A program made the position numbers and the translations under genes. A DNA stretch of 64,000 nucleotides from Patescibacteria group bacterium (GTDB lineage: Bacteria; Patescibacteriota; Minisyncoccia; Phycocordibacterales; DATDWN01): assembly GCA_040389125.1 (NCBI GenBank), contig JAZKAN010000001.1, positions 47,398-111,397 of the forward strand, written 5' to 3'. Below are positions 45,111 to 63,510 of this stretch, piece after piece (the first letter of the stretch is position 1; each line of letters starts with the position of its first letter). The notes below the pieces were generated by a model that did no database searches, was not told the origin of the DNA, and saw only the letters and a list, made by a program, of their open reading frames with translations.

Positions 45111-47039
45111 CTATTTATTATCTTCTGGTTTCTGTTCTGTGAACTCTGCATCTTTGACCGGCCCCTCACTCGCACCCGCACCTGCATCCCCTGCTGGTGG
45201 AGTCTGCTGAGACGATTCCTGCGACGCCTTATTCATCATCTCCCCTATCTTGGAAACCTCTGACGAAAGTGCAACAGTAGCTGACTTTATTTTCTCCAAA
45301 TCATCACCTTCTTTTTCTTTTTTAAGATCTGCAACTTTTTCTTCAATCGAAGTCTTGAGATCCGCCGGCACTTTGTCACCCGCATCTCGCAGTGACTTCT
45401 CGGCAGTATAGATCAATTGTTCACCGAGATTTTTTGCTTCAACAACATCTTTTTTCTTGAGATCGTCTGCTGCATGTGCCTCGGCATCTTTTTGCATTTT
45501 CTCAATCTCCTCTTTTGAAAGTCCTGATCGTGCCTCGATACGGATTGACTGTTCCTTGCCACTCGCTTTATCCTTTGCTTTTACGGACAAAATTCCGTTT
45601 GCATCTACATCAAACATTACTTCTACCTGTGGCATACCGCGAGGTGCTGGTGGAATACCGTCGAGAATAAATCGTCCGAGAGATTTGTTGTCTCCTGCCA
45701 TTGCACGCTCACCTTGCACAATATGTATTTCAACCGATGTCTGATTGTCTGCAGCAGTTGAGAAAACCTGTGATCGCGATGCAGGGATGGTTGTGTTTCG
45801 CTCTACTAGTTTCGTTGCAACCCCTCCCATAGTTTCAATACCAAGTGATAGTGGAATCACATCGAGTAGCAAAACATCCTTTACATCCCCACCGAGAATT
45901 CCTCCTTGGATTGCAGCTCCGAGAGCTACAACTTCATCTGGGTTAATTGATTTGTTTGGTTCTTTGCCGAAATACTCTTTCACTTTTTCTGCCATTTTTG
46001 GCATACGAGTCTGACCTCCGACGAGAATTACTTCGTTGATCTGAGCTGTCGTAAATCCAGATGCTTCCATTGCTCGTTTTGTGATTGCCATTGCACGATC
46101 AATGAATTCCATAGTGAGCTCCTCAAGTTTTGCACGAGTCATTTTGATGAGCAAGTGTCGTGGGCCAGAACTATCTGACGTAATAAACGGAATGTTTACT
46201 TCTGATTCCATCGCAGTCGAGAGTTCGATTTTTGCCTTTTCTGCTGCCTCATCAAGTCGCTGAAGTGCGAGTGTGTCTGCACGCAAATCAATGCCAGACT
46301 CCTTTTTAAACTCATCCGCGAGAAATCCTATGATTTTCTGATCAATATCCTTGCCTCCGAGATGTGAGTCACCATCTGTTGCCTTTACTTTTATATCTCC
46401 TCCCACTTCATCCACATCCACTTCGAGAACTGAAATATCAAATGTTCCACCTCCAAAGTCGAATACAACTATTTTTTCATCCTTTCGATTTTTATCAAAT
46501 CCGTACGCGAGAGCGGCTGCAGTCGGCTCGTTGATAATACGTAGCACCTCAAGTCCAGCAATCTGTCCCGCGTCTTTGGTAGCCTGACGCTGTGCATCGT
46601 TGAAATACGCTGGTACGGTGATGACCGCCTGAGTTATTTTCTCACCTACTTTTGCTTCAGCATCTGCCTTTAGCTTTGAGAGTATCATTGCAGAGATTTC
46701 TTCTGGCGTGTAATCCTTACCATTCATTTTGACCAAAACTCCGTTTGTTGGAGATTTCAAAACCTCAAATGGCACGACTGCTTTGTCTTTCTGTACTGCT
46801 GCGTCATCAAACGTGTGACCAATGAAACGCTTGATACCGAAAATGGTATTTTTTGGATTTGTCACCGCCTGGCGTTTTGCAAGGAGTCCCACAAGTCGCT
46901 CGCCAGTTTTGGACACTGCAATAATAGAAGGAGTGGTACGCGCACCCTCCGCATTTTCAAGTATCTTCGGCTGTCCTGCCTCCATGACAGCAACAGCACT
47001 GTTTGTTGTTCCTAAGTCGATTCCAATAATTTTACTCAT
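45111..47039 (-). CDS. dnaK: Chaperone DnaK (Hsp70)
   Basis: [22 protein letters not shown] and [11 protein letters not shown] signatures over the full length. Confidence 0.97.
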
Positions 47040-47089
47040 AACATTATAATGTTAAAATTTTTAATAAGTCACTAAAAAGTAAATTTAAG

Positions 47090-47187
47090 AAACTCGTTCT
47101 GACACATACGATTATGGCGCATCTCGGAGTCCGTGAAGAGACGAGAGCGAAGAAATTTTTCAACAGAAAAATATTCTGGCGACAGAA
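47090..47187. repeat. Copy 1 of a duplicated, structured roughly 100-nt element (upstream of dnaK)
   Basis: Shares with copy 2 an identical 28-nt core CTCGGAGTCCGTGAAGAGACGAGAGCGA (47123-47150), flanking TGGCGCATCT, and a 37-nt tail with a conserved hairpin. Confidence 0.8.
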
Positions 47188-47224
47188 TCGTATGTGGCAT
47201 GAATGAGTTTCGCCACAATACTAC

Positions 47225-47530
47225 TTAAATAGTTGGTGCTCTGGGTTTAGAACCTGATGAGTATAAAACATTTAAATCAAAATATGGTGAAGCTGTTTTA
47301 CCTTCGAATACAATCTTTTCTGAATATGTATTTTTCTGAACAGAACCACAAAGTACAGGAGTAGAATTCTGAGTTAATACCTCACTTTCAATAACAACCG
47401 AACTCACCAGTCGAGCTTTGATACGACCACTGTTTTCATACACGCAAAACGTCGCACGAACGAGTTGTCCGTCTGCGTTTCGGATGATTTTCTCTATGAA
47501 TTTACCTCTTGGAGTAGTTAGTTGTCGCAT
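47225..47530 (-). CDS. Hypothetical protein
   Basis: A 101-aa ORF inside the segment bracketed by the duplicated element. No motif recognised. Confidence 0.4.
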   Translation of the reverse strand: MRQLTTPRGKFIEKIIRNADGQLVRATFCVYENSGRIKARLVSSVVIESEVLTQNSTPVLCGSVQKNTYSEKIVFEGKTASPYFDLNVLYSSGSKPRAPTI

Positions 47531-47572
47531 AGTATTTCAGAGAATTATACAATATTTCTGTTTCAAAAAGTA

Positions 47573-47600
47573 TTGACAATTTATATATCTATTATATTAT
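47573..47600 (+). promoter_or_regulatory. Promoter TTGACA-16-TATTAT for the zinc-ribbon gene
   Basis: TTGACA at 47573-47578 and TATTAT at 47595-47600. SD AAAGGAG (47622-47628) lies 7 nt before ATG 47636. Confidence 0.55.
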
Positions 47601-47635
47601 CTAATCTAGATAAGCCTGTAGAAAGGAGATAAAAA

Positions 47636-47848
47636 ATGAGTCAGGCATACCCTGCCAAGCAGATAATTCACTGTCCCCTCTGCAATGACCCAGGACGACC
47701 CCAACACATTGGTCAAGGAGTTATGTTCTGCGAATGTTGCGGAAACAGATTCCGAGTAGTACACTCAAATCCCGGAAAAACTGGCAAAAAACTCGATCGG
47801 TTTATCAAAGATCGGATGCAATTTGCCTCGGGACCAAACACAAACTGA
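47636..47848 (+). CDS. Small zinc-ribbon protein
   Basis: CPLC...(17 aa)...CECC four-Cys pattern, a strong SD, its own promoter and its own terminator. Confidence 0.55.
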   Translation: MSQAYPAKQIIHCPLCNDPGRPQHIGQGVMFCECCGNRFRVVHSNPGKTGKKLDRFIKDRMQFASGPNTN

Positions 47849-47860
47849 CAATCTTGTCCT

Positions 47861-47892
47861 GCCGAGACCGCCATGCTGTCTCGGCGTTTCTC
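47861..47892 (+). terminator. Intrinsic terminator of the zinc-ribbon gene
   Basis: 8-bp stem GCCGAGAC/GTCTCGGC with a 9-nt loop, then GTTTCTCGT. Confidence 0.6.
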
Positions 47893-47905
47893 GTATATAA
47901 ACAAC

Positions 47906-48026
47906 AGAATCTCGTTGAGTAAAAACTTTTCTGGCGCATCTAAGGGTACACTTATGCAAGGCTCGGAGTCCGTGAAGAGACGAGAGCGAGGAAAATTTTC
48001 AGTAGAAAATTATTCCGGCAACAGAA
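47906..48026. repeat. Copy 2 of the duplicated structured element (immediately downstream of grpE)
   Basis: Identical 28-nt core at 47962-47989. Carries about 20 extra nt (AAGGGTACACTTATGCAAGG) after TGGCGCATCT. The tail hairpin is preserved by a compensatory change. Confidence 0.8.
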
Positions 48027-48058
48027 AAGATTTTGTGAAAAAGAGATTAGTGTGTACT

Positions 48059-48664
48059 TTACTTCTCAATATGCGTAACACGTACTTTCGGCGCCCGTAT
48101 TTCTTTTCCATTTAGCTCATACCCGAGCTGGACTACCTCCTGTATCTTTCCATCCTCTGACTCGTCTGTTGTTGGTATATTTTCAATCGCATCATCCCTC
48201 ACTGCATTATACAACTCACCTACTGGATTTATTACCTTGAGTCCGTGGTTTCCGAGTATTGTCATGAGTTGTGAATGTATGTACTCGACACCCACTCGCC
48301 AGTTTTTATCTACTTTTTCCCATGCTTCTTTATTTTTAAACGCAGATTCAAATGAATCGAGAATAGGCAAAAGTTCCGTGATCGTATCCTCTTTTGCAAA
48401 TTTCAAAAATTCTTTTCTCTCGCTCTCATCCTTTTTTCGAAGGTTTATGAAATCCGCTTTGTCTCTCTGCCACGAGTCGAGAAGCTCTGTATTTTTCTTC
48501 TCAAGCTCCTTGATCCGAGCCTTAAGTTTTTCCACCTTTGCTTTGTAATCCCCTCCTGTCACCTCTGTATTATCCTCCAACACAAAATCATCCCCAGCAT
48601 CGGTATCCACCTCGGGTTCTGGTGCCTGGTTTTCTATTTTCTCATCTTCATTAGTATCATTCAT
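48059..48664 (-). CDS. grpE: Nucleotide exchange factor GrpE
   Basis: Acidic N-terminus, a long coiled coil, and a C-terminal beta domain (GKIQEVVQLGYELNGKEIRAPKVRV). TATAAT (48672-48677) lies 7 nt before ATG 48664. Confidence 0.9.
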   Translation of the reverse strand: MNDTNEDEKIENQAPEPEVDTDAGDDFVLEDNTEVTGGDYKAKVEKLKARIKELEKKNTELLDSWQRDKADFINLRKKDESERKEFLKFAKEDTITELLPILDSFESAFKNKEAWEKVDKNWRVGVEYIHSQLMTILGNHGLKVINPVGELYNAVRDDAIENIPTTDESEDGKIQEVVQLGYELNGKEIRAPKVRVTHIEK

Positions 48665-48746
48665 GCGCAAAATTATACATTATTTTTAACTTTTCTAAAA
48701 TTGACAAAAATATAATTAATGAGATATTGTAGTATAGGAGGGAAAA

Positions 48747-48945: not shown

Positions 48946-48980
48946 CCGCCGAGAGCCGCCAACGCGCTCCGGCGGTTTCT
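48946..48980 (+). terminator. Hairpin terminator
   Basis: CCGCCG ... CGGCGG stem followed by TTTCT. Confidence 0.5.
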
Positions 48981-49018
48981 CATATCCAAAAAATACTGTA
49001 TTTTTTGGATATGAGAAA
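48976..49018. repeat. 43-nt perfect palindrome between convergent genes
   Basis: The arm TTTCTCATATCCAAAAAATAC (48976-48996), a central T, then the exact reverse complement (48998-49018). Confidence 0.85.
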
Positions 49019-49028
49019 CTATAGAGGG

Positions 49029-49478
49029 TTAATTCTTATTTTTTAATTGCGTTGAATTATTTTTAATCCACTCTGAAGTCAAGACAACAATTGTTTCTAC
49101 ACGATCATTTGTTTGAGCAATTTCGAGCGCTTTGTCTCGCATTTCTTTTTGACTTACCGTTAAAATCAAATCATTGATATATAAGAAAACAATTAAAACT
49201 GCAACTGAAAGCCGTTTATTTCCATTTCCAAAGGCGTGATTTCTATTGATCGCATAGAATAAAATAGCTGCTTTTTTGTATATATCAGGATATAATTCAG
49301 TACCATACACTGCTTGTCTAGGTAAACTTAGACTTGCGTCTAGTTTTGCCTGATCATGATCTTTATACAAACCCATAGGTTCCTCATCCTGAAAAAGTTC
49401 ACATGCCAAGCTGTGGCAGATATTCTCCAAAATTTCCTCGGAAATATAATTAATGGATGAGTTTTTCTCCTCTGTCAT
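49029..49478 (-). CDS. doc: Doc-family (Fic-fold) toxin
   Basis: The motif HAFGNGNKRLS matches the Doc-type HxFx[DN]GNKR variant of the Fic motif. Confidence 0.78.
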   Translation of the reverse strand: MTEEKNSSINYISEEILENICHSLACELFQDEEPMGLYKDHDQAKLDASLSLPRQAVYGTELYPDIYKKAAILFYAINRNHAFGNGNKRLSVAVLIVFLYINDLILTVSQKEMRDKALEIAQTNDRVETIVVLTSEWIKNNSTQLKNKN

Positions 49479-49623
49479 ATCGTGCCAAGTCTTTTAACGT
49501 ACCACCGTATTTTTCAATAGCAAAATTAATACCATTCTCGACTTTAGTGTCCAGTTCTTCTTTTTTATCATGCTCTCTTTTTTTATTATTATCAGAGAAC
49601 CAACTTTGGATTAATTTTTTCAT
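49450..49623 (-). CDS. Putative antitoxin (57 aa, not in the ORF track)
   Basis: Hand translation gives MKKLIQSWFSDNNKKREHDKKEELDTKVENGINFAIEKYGGTLKDLARYDRGEKLIH*. It overlaps the doc start by 29 nt and is preceded by a TTGTCA-17-TAGAAT-7-ATG promoter. Confidence 0.5.
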   Translation of the reverse strand: MKKLIQSWFSDNNKKREHDKKEELDTKVENGINFAIEKYGGTLKDLARYDRGEKLIH

Positions 49624-55433: not shown

Positions 55434-55534
55434 GAGTAGATTACTACGTATATTGTAACGCACAAACATACATTTGCAAATAAATGGGTGTGAACAAATG
55501 GAACCCCAGCTCCACAAAACTTCTTTCTCCTCAT
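55430..55534 (-). CDS. Possible 34-codon upstream ORF coupled by ATGA to the next gene
   Basis: Hand translation gives MRRKKFCGAGVPFVHTHLFANVCLCVTIYVVIYS*. Its ATG lies inside one arm of the 17-bp stem and its TGA overlaps ATG 55433. Confidence 0.25.
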   Translation of the reverse strand: MRRKKFCGAGVPFVHTHLFANVCLCVTIYVVIYS

Positions 55535-55618
55535 TTCTTTTTTAGGGCACGCGATAAATTCTGCTGAATTTTCGCTCAATCTCCCGCCAGCGGTCCGAAG
55601 TCCCTAAAAAAGAAATGA
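55531..55618. repeat. 88-nt element closed by a perfect 17-bp inverted repeat (candidate structured RNA or regulatory element)
   Basis: TCATTTCTTTTTTAGGG (55531-55547) pairs with CCCTAAAAAAGAAATGA (55602-55618). An internal hairpin reads GCGATAAATTC-TGCT-GAATTTTCGC. An adjacent 6-bp hairpin sits at 55619-55638. Confidence 0.75.
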
Positions 55619-55672
55619 CTCAACGAAGTTTTGTTGAGTGGTTATGTAAAAATTTATTTCAGATACAACAAA

Positions 55673-60749: not shown

Positions 60750-61598
60750 TTACAATGTTGCGATTTCGTCAATAACTCTTTTTGATGTTTCATCATCCAC
60801 TCCTATTGATGCAAGTAGGTCAGGATTTTCTGTGATTGTTTTACAGAGAACAACACCCTTATCCAAAAGTAGTTTTTTGTGAATACCATCGAGTGCAGTC
60901 AGACATGTCAGCGGATGTAGTTTTGCCTCAAGTATCATGTCGTGCAAGTTGCCATGCGGTGGATAGTTCCAGCCAATCATGACGAGTCCACCCTGGCACG
61001 ATCCGTATTCAATCGCCGTACTCGTAAATTTAGTGTTTGTTACGAGCCATCCTTCGTCGAGATCGCGTTCTGCACCACCTTGCTTTGCACCATACTTAAA
61101 TTTCATTTGTCGTAAATCATCAAACCGAGCCTTAACATACAATGCGATTTTCAAATCCGATCGAATACCGAGCTGGTTGTGAAATTTGGCCTCCACCATG
61201 ATCAGTTTCTTTTCATTCCACGCGACAACATCCACTTCATGCTCAACACAAAACCCTCGCACAATCTGCCCTGTGATCGCCTCATAGCCTTTGTATTTAA
61301 AAATTTCTGCAATGAAATCCTCAAACGGAAATCCCGATGGACCCAAATCCATCACTGCGCGTTTGATGGAGTATTTGATTGCAGTAGGACGATTATCCCG
61401 ATGAAGTAATGCAAACGCATGCGTGTATATTTCATGTGTGGTGATTCCATCTTTCATGGTTTCGCTCAGCGTGGACAATATCTCCTCGACCTCTTTTGTA
61501 CTCGCACCTGCACGTTTGAGCGAAAACTCTAATTTTTTTGTATCAAAAAATTCTTTCTTCCCGTCCGATTTTGTAACATATATTGGTTCTGTATTCAT
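60750..61598 (-). CDS. ATP-cone domain fused to an Mrr/PD-(D/E)xK-type restriction endonuclease-like domain
   Basis: N-terminal VTKSDGKKEFFDTKKLEFSLKRAG (ATP-cone start). The centre has FEDFIAEIFKYKGY...HEVDVVAW...LIMVEAKF (D...ExK nuclease core). TGcGATAAT lies 6 nt before ATG 61598. Confidence 0.65.
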   Translation of the reverse strand: MNTEPIYVTKSDGKKEFFDTKKLEFSLKRAGASTKEVEEILSTLSETMKDGITTHEIYTHAFALLHRDNRPTAIKYSIKRAVMDLGPSGFPFEDFIAEIFKYKGYEAITGQIVRGFCVEHEVDVVAWNEKKLIMVEAKFHNQLGIRSDLKIALYVKARFDDLRQMKFKYGAKQGGAERDLDEGWLVTNTKFTSTAIEYGSCQGGLVMIGWNYPPHGNLHDMILEAKLHPLTCLTALDGIHKKLLLDKGVVLCKTITENPDLLASIGVDDETSKRVIDEIATL

Positions 61599-61638
61599 AG
61601 GAGAATTATCGCATAAACATGTAGCCCAAACAACACAC

Positions 61639-61668
61639 CTTGACTTTTTAGTATAAAGTGTGATATAA
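61639..61668 (+). promoter_or_regulatory. Promoter TTGACT-18-TGaTATAAT for the ABC exporter gene
   Basis: TTGACT at 61639-61644 and TATAAT at 61663-61668, about 21 nt before the TTG 61690 start. Confidence 0.55.
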
Positions 61669-61689
61669 TGCGGACGGAAAGGATTAAAA

Positions 61690-63510
61690 TTGTCAGAACA
61701 AAAAAAGCAGAGTTTCAGTTCTCAGACGCTTCTCATCTATTGGCGTCACATTAAAGCCTATTGGCCACTGCTCATACTCTGCGCAGTTGGTATTTTCACT
61801 CACATCGGGTCCGATTTACTCGCACCCTTGATGTACAAGAAGCTTTTAGATTTACTCGCCATTGATCCATTTCATCCCGCACAACGCGGTACGATGGATC
61901 AGATCTACTTCACCATCAGATTGATTGTACTCGCAGCTTTTGGAACATGGATCGGATCGCGTATACAAATGTATGCCGTCCAAAAATTCGAGAGCAGCTG
62001 TATGGCTGATCTGAGTAACACATGCTTCAGGTATCTACACAATCACTCCTACAAGTTCTTTTCAGACAATTATGCTGGATCGCTTATCAAAAGAGTTAAT
62101 CGTTTTCCCGTCTGCTTTGAGATGGTAGCTGATCAATTCTTTCTTCAATTTGGACCAATCACCATACGGATTGTGTTGTTGCTTGGCATCATGTTTTCAC
62201 GCAACAAGCAGCTCGGATACGCTCTCCTCACCTGGACCATCGTATTCGTGTGTTACAACATACTCTTCTCTCGGTACAGATTAAAATATGATCTGAGGCG
62301 TGCAGAATTGGATTCTAAAGTGACTGGACGACTTTCAGATACGATCAGCAACAATATCAACCTAAAGTTGTTCGCGGGTATTGAACGAGAGAATTCCAGT
62401 TTCAAAAATCTCACCGATGAACATCGTCACGCACGCTATTTCTCTTGGAATCTGTACGAGCGATCAAATTGGTTTCAAGGACTTTCGATCATAATACTTG
62501 AAGCTATAATGATCACTATGGCAGTAACATACTGGAGCCGTGGAATTTTGACTCTCGGTGATTTTATACTACTGAGGTTTTATTTCAGGGATTTGGTAAA
62601 TAAAGTTCAAGAAATTAGTGGCAGTGTTCGTAAGTTGTACGAGGCAATGGCGGATGCAAACGAGATGACAGAAATCTTACTCACCAAGCATGAAATCTGT
62701 GATATCGAAGATGCACTCCCCCTTGTCGTCCAGGCTGGAGAAATAGAGTTTCATAACGTGCAGTTCCGATATACTGGCAACGCAAATTTAGTCCTCAAAG
62801 ATTTCAACTTGCGGACAAAAGCTGGTGAACGGATCGGCATCGTGGGCTCTTCAGGTGGTGGCAAGTCTACTATTCTCAAACTGCTCGTCCGACTACACGA
62901 CGTCACTGACGGTATGATCCTGATCGACAATCAGGATATCACCCAAGTGACTCAGAGTAGTCTCCATCGCAGTATTGCTTATGTCCCGCAGGACCCGATT
63001 CTTTTCCATCGCACGCTCATGGAGAACATTCGGTACTCGCGACCGGAAGCAACAGACGAAGAAGTAGTTCACGCTGCAAAACTGGCACACTGTCATGAGT
63101 TTATTTCTAGTTTTCCTCAAGGGTATGAAACTCTTGTTGGTGAGCGAGGAATCAAACTGTCAGGCGGTGAACGTCAGCGAGTGGCAATCGCACGAGCGAT
63201 CCTCATGAACGCTCCAATTATCGTACTGGATGAGGCAACATCAAGTCTCGATTCAGAATCGGAAGTGCTCATCCAAGATGCTCTATCAAAGTTGGTTGCG
63301 GGACGAACGGTTTTTGCAGTCGCACATCGTCTCTCGACAATCCGCAAAATGGATCGCATCTTTGTAGTCACGAATGGTCAGATCGTCGAAGAAGGCAACC
63401 ACGACCTTCTCCTCAAAATTAAGGATGGAACCTATCAGAAACTCTGGGAACTCCAGACTATGGATTCATCTGAGGATAAGAATGATCAGACTCAAGGATA
63501 TCTACAGTAG
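61690..63510 (+). CDS. ABC exporter, fused permease-ATPase (MsbA/type I exporter-like)
   Basis: Six-TM N-terminal domain, Walker A GSSGGGKST, signature LSGGERQRVAIARA, and Walker B IIVLDEATS. Confidence 0.88.
   Translation: MSEQKKQSFSSQTLLIYWRHIKAYWPLLILCAVGIFTHIGSDLLAPLMYKKLLDLLAIDPFHPAQRGTMDQIYFTIRLIVLAAFGTWIGSRIQMYAVQKFESSCMADLSNTCFRYLHNHSYKFFSDNYAGSLIKRVNRFPVCFEMVADQFFLQFGPITIRIVLLLGIMFSRNKQLGYALLTWTIVFVCYNILFSRYRLKYDLRRAELDSKVTGRLSDTISNNINLKLFAGIERENSSFKNLTDEHRHARYFSWNLYERSNWFQGLSIIILEAIMITMAVTYWSRGILTLGDFILLRFYFRDLVNKVQEISGSVRKLYEAMADANEMTEILLTKHEICDIEDALPLVVQAGEIEFHNVQFRYTGNANLVLKDFNLRTKAGERIGIVGSSGGGKSTILKLLVRLHDVTDGMILIDNQDITQVTQSSLHRSIAYVPQDPILFHRTLMENIRYSRPEATDEEVVHAAKLAHCHEFISSFPQGYETLVGERGIKLSGGERQRVAIARAILMNAPIIVLDEATSSLDSESEVLIQDALSKLVAGRTVFAVAHRLSTIRKMDRIFVVTNGQIVEEGNHDLLLKIKDGTYQKLWELQTMDSSEDKNDQTQGYLQ

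Follow-up and report, generated by a model that had tools for sequence, protein, structure and literature searches.

Two repeats beside grpE and dnaK belong to a dispersed family of structured, covarying intergenic elements in Patescibacteria

Several kinds of dispersed, structured sequence are known from bacterial genomes. ERIC/IRU sequences are imperfect palindromes of ~127 nucleotides (nt) that lie only between genes, may point either way and show good conservation between species. The Correia/nemis elements of Neisseria, repeats of 100-150 nt that are also intergenic, have ends that pair with each other in a long stem, which in transcripts is a substrate of RNase III; these ends are terminal inverted repeats whose sequence is fixed, the target duplication is TA, and the copies are near-identical. 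Among small RNAs, the bacterial Y RNAs (YrlA, with Rsr/Ro) measure ~100-130 nt and have a long stem that joins the 5' and 3' ends, several paralogues and a protein-binding module, and the bacterial twister and hammerhead ribozymes show a dispersed multi-copy pattern on either strand, without gene association. Patescibacteria make up a large share of bacterial diversity and have genomes of ~1 Mb with very short intergenic spacers; to our knowledge, almost no regulatory RNAs have been described from them. This study concerns a 64,000-nt stretch of a Patescibacteria genome (contig JAZKAN010000001.1), here called the window, whose positions are used for the coordinates of all copies in it. A preliminary description of this stretch had noticed a pair of ~100-nt repeats between grpE and dnaK. 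Each of the two repeats proves to be an independent member of an old family of structured elements dispersed in Patescibacteria, which we rate as a new family within a known general kind, that of dispersed structured intergenic repeats.

Like ERIC/IRU, the element is intergenic, occurs in either orientation, measures 100-150 nt and is present in several copies per genome. ERIC, however, is a simple hairpin of unrelated sequence, whereas the element has an asymmetric three-way junction and freely covarying helices, shows a strand bias that ignores gene orientation and was found only in contigs of Patescibacteria. It resembles Correia as an intergenic repeat of similar size with a long end stem, but its end helix covaries, its paralogues are diverged and no duplication was seen by eye. 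Small size, a long closing stem, paralogues and a conserved module are shared with the Y RNAs, yet the Y RNA module is a bulged helix in the stem, whereas that of the element is the apical junction, and no Rfam model matches. As in the twister, hammerhead, pistol, hatchet and twister-sister ribozymes, the copies are multiple and dispersed without constant gene context, and conserved junctions lie between covarying stems; unlike those small self-cleaving ribozymes, the element has no covariance-model match. REP sequences, which go with a RAYT gene, are palindromes of 20-40 nt, unlike this branched element of 120-140 nt.

The direct repeat in the window spans 65 nt (47123-47187 and 47962-48026) at 89% identity. 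Its 28-nt core, CTCGGAGTCCGTGAAGAGACGAGAGCGA, has two exact occurrences in the window, and with up to three mismatches allowed it was matched in none of 100 shuffles. Both copies are preceded by TGGCGCATCT, and copy 2 alone carries a 20-nt insertion (47942-47961, plus strand) between ATCT and CTCGG, which could form a small extra hairpin on the junction strand between the helices P1 and P2 described below. The repeat pair, the core and the extra nucleotides of copy 2 are therefore as first described, but the extent of ~100 nt was too short. With their closing stems, copy 1 occupies 47089-47211 and copy 2 47908-48048, both on the plus strand, and a third copy is added at 55515-55632 on the minus strand, which makes three copies in the 64 kb. 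In cmsearch with the covariance model R1 introduced below, copy 1, which is complete, scores 117.5 bits (E = 2e-30), copy 2 83.5 bits (E = 9e-21) and copy 3, which is divergent and has a short P2 loop, 66.7 bits (E = 5e-16, model match 55511-55636). Copy 1 is antisense to dnaK and to the gene of a 101-residue protein, X, which stands between grpE and dnaK; copy 2 abuts the grpE stop codon of the opposite strand. Their positions were correctly given: on the minus strand, the grpE stop is followed by copy 2, and the dnaK ATG comes 50 nt after copy 1. Copy 3 sits between two minus-strand genes, co-oriented with them, and has a hairpin resembling an intrinsic terminator directly upstream. Another candidate for a long hairpin in the window (61524-61715) is coding and promoter sequence and not a copy of the element.

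The element, ~120-140 nt long, is composed of a helix P0, an internal loop, a helix P1 and a three-way junction with the hairpins P2 and P3. P0 has 6-8 base pairs (bp) with the consensus AAAUCU/AGAUUU, and all six of its end-helix pairs change on both sides among copies. The internal loop, 5' GUYGA opposite 3' GAGAAA, is present in ~70% of copies; compared by sequence only with a K-turn, in which a 3-nt bulge precedes tandem sheared G-A pairs and the opposite strand has only GA, it has possible tandem G-A pairs but 4 extra nt on the second strand. P1, of ~19 bp, is free in sequence and always paired. P2 is built of C-N-C/G-N'-G, a GGA/GA loop, 3 bp and a loop YGUGAAGA, which in some copies is replaced by a large insertion or by 4 nt. 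P3 is an AU-rich, sometimes GC-rich, hairpin with one bulged A, in which 9 of 11 pairs change on both sides across the family.

In copy 1, 47090-47095 pair with 47205-47210 as P0, followed by the internal loop, the long helix P1 and the three-way junction. Its P2 (47123-47147, plus strand) consists of C-N-C/G-N'-G (P2a), the GGA/GA internal loop, a 3-bp P2b (GUC/GAC) and the 8-nt loop CGUGAAGA, with P2a and P2b both covarying, and its P3 (47151-47177, plus strand) is AU-rich with the loop AACA and one bulged A. P3 is the covarying hairpin of the preliminary description, whose compensatory pair between copies 1 and 2 proved to be one case of a change seen throughout the family. A second helix proposed there for copy 1, of 8 bp between CGCaTCTCG and CGAGAGCG, had to be cut down to the 3 bp of C-N-C/G-N'-G, in which N/N' is GC, CG, UA or AU; the CGC of CGCaTCTCG pairs with a GCG on the 3' side and forms the top of the closing stem. 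P0 of copy 2 joins AAUCUC (47908-47913) to GAGAUU (48043-48048), and its internal loop is GUUGA/GAAAAA. In each of copies 1 and 2 the closing stem reaches ~25-30 bp, and the stem sequences are wholly unrelated between the two. The minimum free energy is -48.7 kcal/mol for copy 1 on the plus strand and -43.4 on the minus strand (z = -6.2 against shuffles), and -39.7 and -33.6 kcal/mol, respectively, for copy 2 (z = -3.2).

Across the family, the junction and loop nucleotides are near-invariant while the helices covary; ~25 unpaired or junction nucleotides are near-invariant. In the model-based alignment A2, standard pairs fill 95.9% of cells, compared with 70% in shuffles, and both partners change in 35 of 39 pairs. 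Covariation scores 0.70, and no more than 0.11 with the partners slid. Four pairs were added on top of P1, two of which covary (AU/CG and AU/GC); depending on whether these are counted, the pair sets give 94-96% standard cells and 35-37 compensatory pairs among 39-43. The covariance-model check proposed at the outset thus shows that further copies keep the stems, and the earlier suggestion of a structured element under structural constraint is upheld by covariation across the family.

The copies of the family were found in several searches. A scan of one genome per species for an 18-mer of the core gave three sites in Parcubacteria bacterium C7867-006 and three in two metagenome-assembled genomes (MAGs) labelled Saccharibacteria, along with seven chance matches in GC-rich coding DNA. 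A degenerate pattern with P2b left free gave 18 further distinct copies in metagenome contigs, along with six chance matches. The model R1, built on alignment A1 with 24 copies, recovers 33 copies at 53-147 bits across the collected comparison loci (numbered L001, L003 and so on), which are contigs of Patescibacteria MAGs and metagenomes, whereas chance and control loci reach at most 18 bits. Second copies in L020, L025 and L029 are among the matches, as are the dnaK-dnaJ spacer of L006 and the S9-grpE spacers of L003 and L006; the X-dnaK spacer of L009 scores 47 bits with the filters off. Over 65 nt, copy 2 is 97% identical to a copy in L020, from another MAG, and 89% identical to copy 1, so that copies 1 and 2 are not recent duplicates of each other. 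Since they are not each other's closest relatives, the earlier idea of a duplication caused by an insertion is abandoned. L017, L019 and L020 are contigs of MAGs with the label Saccharibacteria, which is doubtful at least for L019, because its flanks share 77-80% identity with the orthologous region of C7867-006.

The Rfam comparison that had been proposed was carried out, and no Rfam 15 family matches. The window has no match at the gathering score; at E values up to 10, the elements are overlapped only by a chance match to a miRNA precursor (20 bits against a cut-off of 83 bits), and in 12 further loci no element was matched. A full-text search of the literature on structured RNAs and repeats of Patescibacteria (the Candidate Phyla Radiation) found no description of the element. 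Signal recognition particle RNA, 6S RNA, retron msr/msd, bridge RNA and omega RNA were considered and dropped, for lack of an Rfam match or of an adjacent gene for the associated protein. An integron attC site, in which RYYYAAC at the 5' end of one strand pairs with GTTRRRY at its 3' end, was also rejected: GTTGAGT is present in some copies but on the 5' side, opposite the unpaired GAGAAA loop, and the neighbours are housekeeping genes in conserved order.

The same results bear on the proposal of a new class of catalytic small RNA, self-cleaving or of another kind. The compact junction of several helices, with its ~25 near-invariant nucleotides, would suit a ribozyme, as would a multi-copy, dispersed distribution on either strand relative to the neighbours and without gene association. 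On the other hand, no Rfam ribozyme model matches at E values up to 10, no candidate cleavage site can be named, and the P2 loop can be exchanged for a large insertion or 4 nt. We consider a catalytic RNA improbable.

Every copy fills an intergenic gap, with the flanking genes within ~30 nt. The neighbouring genes have no common theme and include polA, hisS, rpmE-prfA, ruvC/lepA, nusB-rnc, frr, dnaX, xth, ybeY, comEC and the tmRNA gene. Approximately 16 of the 33 copies are antisense to their neighbours, 8 are co-oriented, 4 lie between convergent genes and 5 are unclassified. In the gene string from S13 to dnaJ, all copies and variants seen are antisense (the window, L003, L006, L009, L030, L035, L049, L050 and L051). 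For at least nine copies, a canonical terminator is found on the same strand 10-35 nt upstream, often preceded by a small open reading frame (ORF), an arrangement that holds for copy 2, L003 and L006. In L003 (1407-1649, minus strand) and the same spacer of L006, a conserved ORF for a membrane protein of ~80 residues and a terminator lie upstream of the element on its own strand, an order that mirrors that of zinc-ribbon ORF, terminator and copy 2 in the window. In L033, a copy at 167-299 lies 10 nt upstream of the tmRNA gene (309-705, RF00023, 105.9 bits) and is co-oriented with it.

Such positions could also be expected of a cis-acting structured repeat of mRNA, comparable to ERIC, Correia/nemis or BOX, which would be co-transcribed in either orientation and whose stem of 25-30 bp would stabilise 3' ends, terminate transcription in part or separate cistrons as an RNase III processing site. 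The element always lies between genes, against the 3' end of one of them, its long stem forms on both strands, both orientations occur, and P0 is a helix of an A-run and a U-run, like the flanks of bidirectional terminators. An intrinsic terminator as such, with a GC-rich stem running straight into a U-run, was rejected, because a terminator scan found none at the elements and the stems are AU-rich. The same scan speaks against the mRNA repeat, as does the canonical terminator that many copies already have just upstream; moreover, the asymmetric junction and the purine loops are given no role, and the bias of G-U pairs over A-C mismatches favours the same strand of the element even in antisense copies. 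This explanation is accordingly regarded as unlikely, though it deserves to be kept in view.

On the element strand, G-U pairs outnumber A-C mismatches 41 to 13 overall (~3:1). The ratio is 21:7 in copies antisense to their neighbours, where five of the seven A-C mismatches come from one truncated copy, and 12:4 in co-oriented copies. In copies 1-3 the element's own strand folds better at every temperature tried, and the conserved loops are purine-rich on this strand. Taken together, the pairing bias, the better folding and the purine-rich loops point to the window plus strand, antisense to grpE, X and dnaK, as the selected strand of copies 1 and 2. A guide function of the variable stem arms was also considered; elsewhere in the window, 12-mers of these arms matched nothing but low-complexity sequence by chance.

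Orthologous copies allow the age of the family to be judged. At three orthologous sites (rpmE-prfA, ruvC/lepA and RNase H-comEC) the inner 70 nt are 91-97% identical, compared with 72-80% for the flanking coding DNA, and the stems are 60-88% identical with compensating changes. On average, the inner part is 78% identical within a genome and 75% between genomes. A general concerted evolution of the copies was therefore dropped, as copies within a genome are no closer than those of different genomes; the exception is C7867-006, in which three copies have cores that are 97-100% identical. Flanking direct repeats or target-site duplications were not seen by eye in the 5-6 nt on each side of the aligned elements, an inspection made without a dedicated search, and the flanks continue the inverted complementarity past the element boundaries. 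Pattern scans of viral contigs found no copies.

Both occupied and empty sites are found among relatives. L001 has no copy 2 at the 3' end of grpE, and the S9-grpE spacer measures 685 nt in L003 and 71 nt in L004; there the breakpoint coincides with a shift in identity from 93% to 99.7%, and no clean insertion ends are readable. Such presence and absence means that copies are gained or lost, and it is what a non-autonomous mobile element would produce, either a miniature inverted-repeat transposable element or a palindromic element of the IS200/IS605 type moving as single-stranded DNA, whose fold would serve mobilisation and not the host. The multiple copies, the several variant families that occupy the same spacers in relatives, the near-identical cores in C7867-006 and the tendency of copies to sit just after terminators can be read in the same way. 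However, a mobile element is difficult to reconcile with boundaries at which no target-site duplication was seen by eye, with an end helix that covaries in place of terminal inverted repeats of fixed sequence, with paralogues as diverged as copies in other genomes, and with orthologous copies that are kept and have cores more conserved than the flanking genes. In addition, no transposase gene adjoins any copy, and no copies of the element were found in the viral contigs. We therefore judge mobility to be a rather poor prospect. An old family kept in place fits better than a recently spreading transposon, because the cores of orthologues are conserved, the paralogues are diverged, no direct repeats were seen by eye at the boundaries and viral contigs yielded no copy.

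At the chaperone locus itself, the two repeats had been thought to bracket a 0.8-kb insertion of two genes. dnaK (45111-47039), X (47225-47530) and grpE (48059-48670; Pfam PF01025, E = 6.5e-36) are all on the minus strand, and between its ATG and copy 1 dnaK has a -35/-10-like site of its own (47072-47043). X is a conserved member of a grpE-X-dnaK gene order in Patescibacteria, where it has 73 homologues of ~100 residues. In the ten homologues examined (L001, L003, L004, L006-L009 and L049-L051), X stands between grpE and dnaK wherever the contig reaches the neighbours; three of these contigs are short, do not hold all three genes and agree with the order. In several relatives X starts just 4-43 nt after grpE. 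X, being conserved between grpE and dnaK, is not an insertion, and only the part with the zinc-ribbon ORF and copy 2 is lineage-specific. The annotation is corrected accordingly: the gene of the 101-residue protein belongs to the grpE-dnaK string as a member that is conserved and uncharacterised. It has no Pfam match and no significant fold match in the PDB, and X may be an accessory protein of the chaperone system. Its AlphaFold model shows a confident three-stranded beta meander at residues 10-46, the remainder being of low confidence, and its C terminus carries an invariant G-(S-K)-P-R-A-P-T motif.

The lineage-specific unit upstream of copy 2 (47573-47893, plus strand) consists of a promoter-like site (47573-47600) matching at 11 of 12 positions, a zinc-ribbon ORF of 70 residues (47636-47848) with a good Shine-Dalgarno sequence, and a terminator hairpin (47861-47893), in agreement with what had been noted for this ORF. 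A search of 5.8 billion clustered proteins gave no homologue, and the sole Pfam signal, below threshold, is to the recombinase zinc-ribbon domain PF13408. In L001, whose X is 75% identical, the same terminator hairpin directly follows the grpE stop, without copy 2, and different small divergent ORFs occupy the interval from grpE to X in L001, L005, L008 and L009. One reading put forward for the locus was that the repeats are the ends of a small mobile cassette carrying the 101-residue and zinc-ribbon ORFs. Direct repeats do flank 0.7 kb, and the zinc-ribbon ORF is an orphan. The 101-residue gene, however, is at the same position in relatives without flanking repeats, each copy is a complete, self-contained hairpin unit with single copies at other loci, and copy 2 is nearer to a copy of another MAG than to copy 1. 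With these results the cassette has been given up almost entirely.

The other reading was that of a heat-shock regulatory RNA or thermosensor, ancestral to the grpE-dnaK spacer and duplicated by the insertion, with copy 1 in the dnaK 5' untranslated region. The comparison of relatives gave a mixed result. A member of the family or its variant with expanded P2 is present in the X-dnaK spacer of the window, L030, L009, L003, L004, L006 and L007, and further copies lie in dnaK-dnaJ and S9-grpE spacers, but L001, L005, L008, L050 and L051 have other sequences in the X-dnaK spacer. Against such a regulator, all copies at chaperone loci are antisense to the chaperone genes, most copies adjoin unrelated genes, and the promoter-like site of dnaK lies downstream of copy 1. 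The fold is also stable to 55-65 °C, with 42-46 of 47-50 pairs still predicted at 55 °C, and when the minus strand is folded the dnaK start lies outside the element and is left unpaired. The element thus shares with RNA thermometers (ROSE, fourU) and the CIRCE/HrcA operator only its location beside grpE and dnaK; in contrast to the thermometers, it lies on the wrong strand, its pairing involves neither a ribosome-binding site nor a start codon, and its stability is far too high. The CIRCE inverted repeat, TTAGCACTC-N9-GAGTGCTAA, was not found in the window with up to three mismatches. It is hard to see how heat-shock control could still be the explanation.

The explanation that we favour, and which we hold to be about equally likely to prove right or wrong, is that the elements are structured RNAs of an old family, each made from its own strand, that are maintained in place and have no part in heat-shock control. 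The element would act as a folded RNA read from its own strand, which in copies 1 and 2 is the window plus strand. The closing stem would join and protect the ends of a self-contained module, and the conserved junction with the two G-A-rich loops would form the site recognised by a putative factor, a protein or an RNase. The position at the chaperone locus would then reflect the use of scarce intergenic space. As the element is fully complementary to its spacer, its RNA could also pair with the operon mRNA and trigger cleavage of the duplex, which is speculation. A separate unit is favoured by the terminators upstream of at least nine copies and by the copy beside the tmRNA gene. In a more specific form, the elements would be an undescribed, compact class of small RNA restricted to Patescibacteria, maintained by the host as many old paralogues and read from their own strand, mostly antisense within essential operons, where their role would be that of a scaffold for ribonucleoproteins, of a cis-antisense regulator or of a ribozyme, and not that of a mobile element; to this we attach somewhat less than even confidence.

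Several points weigh against the favoured explanation. Expression from the element's own strand is predicted from sequence features, and the protein that would recognise it is putative. The strand bias is no strict proof of RNA, because hairpins of single-stranded DNA also tolerate G-T mismatches. Hexamers resembling a -10 box are equally common upstream in both orientations and at no fixed distance, and approximately one copy in three has the orientation of its neighbours and could be nothing more than a piece of an mRNA. The conservation of the P2 region is overstated, because the sample was seeded with exact matches to this region, and the P2 loop varies among the copies that the model alone recovered. 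Finally, the near-identical cores of C7867-006 fit a recent spread or gene conversion in that genome.

The variant with expanded P2 has the same scaffold and P3, but its P2 is larger by ~60 nt and contains a conserved GUCAAUGAC ... GGCUCUUGAC. It is found in the S9-grpE spacer and, in L003, L004, L006 and L007, in the X-dnaK spacer, and it was assigned to L049 and L050 by inspection of folds only. Its antisense copies in S9-grpE, X-dnaK and dnaK-dnaJ spacers lie at 1127-1311 and 2716-2860 of L003, 1788-1972 and 3310-3450 of L006, 8288-8427 of L049 and ~12540-12690 of L050. Other repeats are also present. A second dispersed family consists of a near-perfect hairpin of ~105 nt with a GGAGCC...GGUGAC apex, located in L17-L13 and S4-rpoA spacers (L049 7364-7469, L051 8151-8256 and 6580-6685); it folds much better antisense to the ribosomal protein genes (e.g. 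-59.6 versus -49.0 kcal/mol). In the X-dnaK spacers of L005 (761-870), L050 (10301-10436) and L051 (10313-10434), the element is replaced by a palindrome of repeated ACGAAT/ATTCGT units, which could be an operator array or another repeat family. Beyond grpE in the window, a perfect 22-nt palindrome (48975-49019) adjoins a gene of the Fic/DOC family (49029-49623, minus strand) with a small overlapping upstream ORF. From its sequence, the pair looks like a toxin-antitoxin module; it stands between rpsI and grpE, in a spacer whose content also varies among relatives.

In genomes as compact as those of Patescibacteria, an element of ~130 nt that recurs several times in 64 kb, at the cost of scarce space, and has a junction core more conserved than the neighbouring protein genes points to a selected function. 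With ~40 covarying pairs, it is a well-supported new RNA family that can be used for annotating Patescibacteria genomes. If expressed, it would offer a route to a new RNA-protein partnership, to antisense control or to a catalytic RNA in organisms that are not culturable alone.

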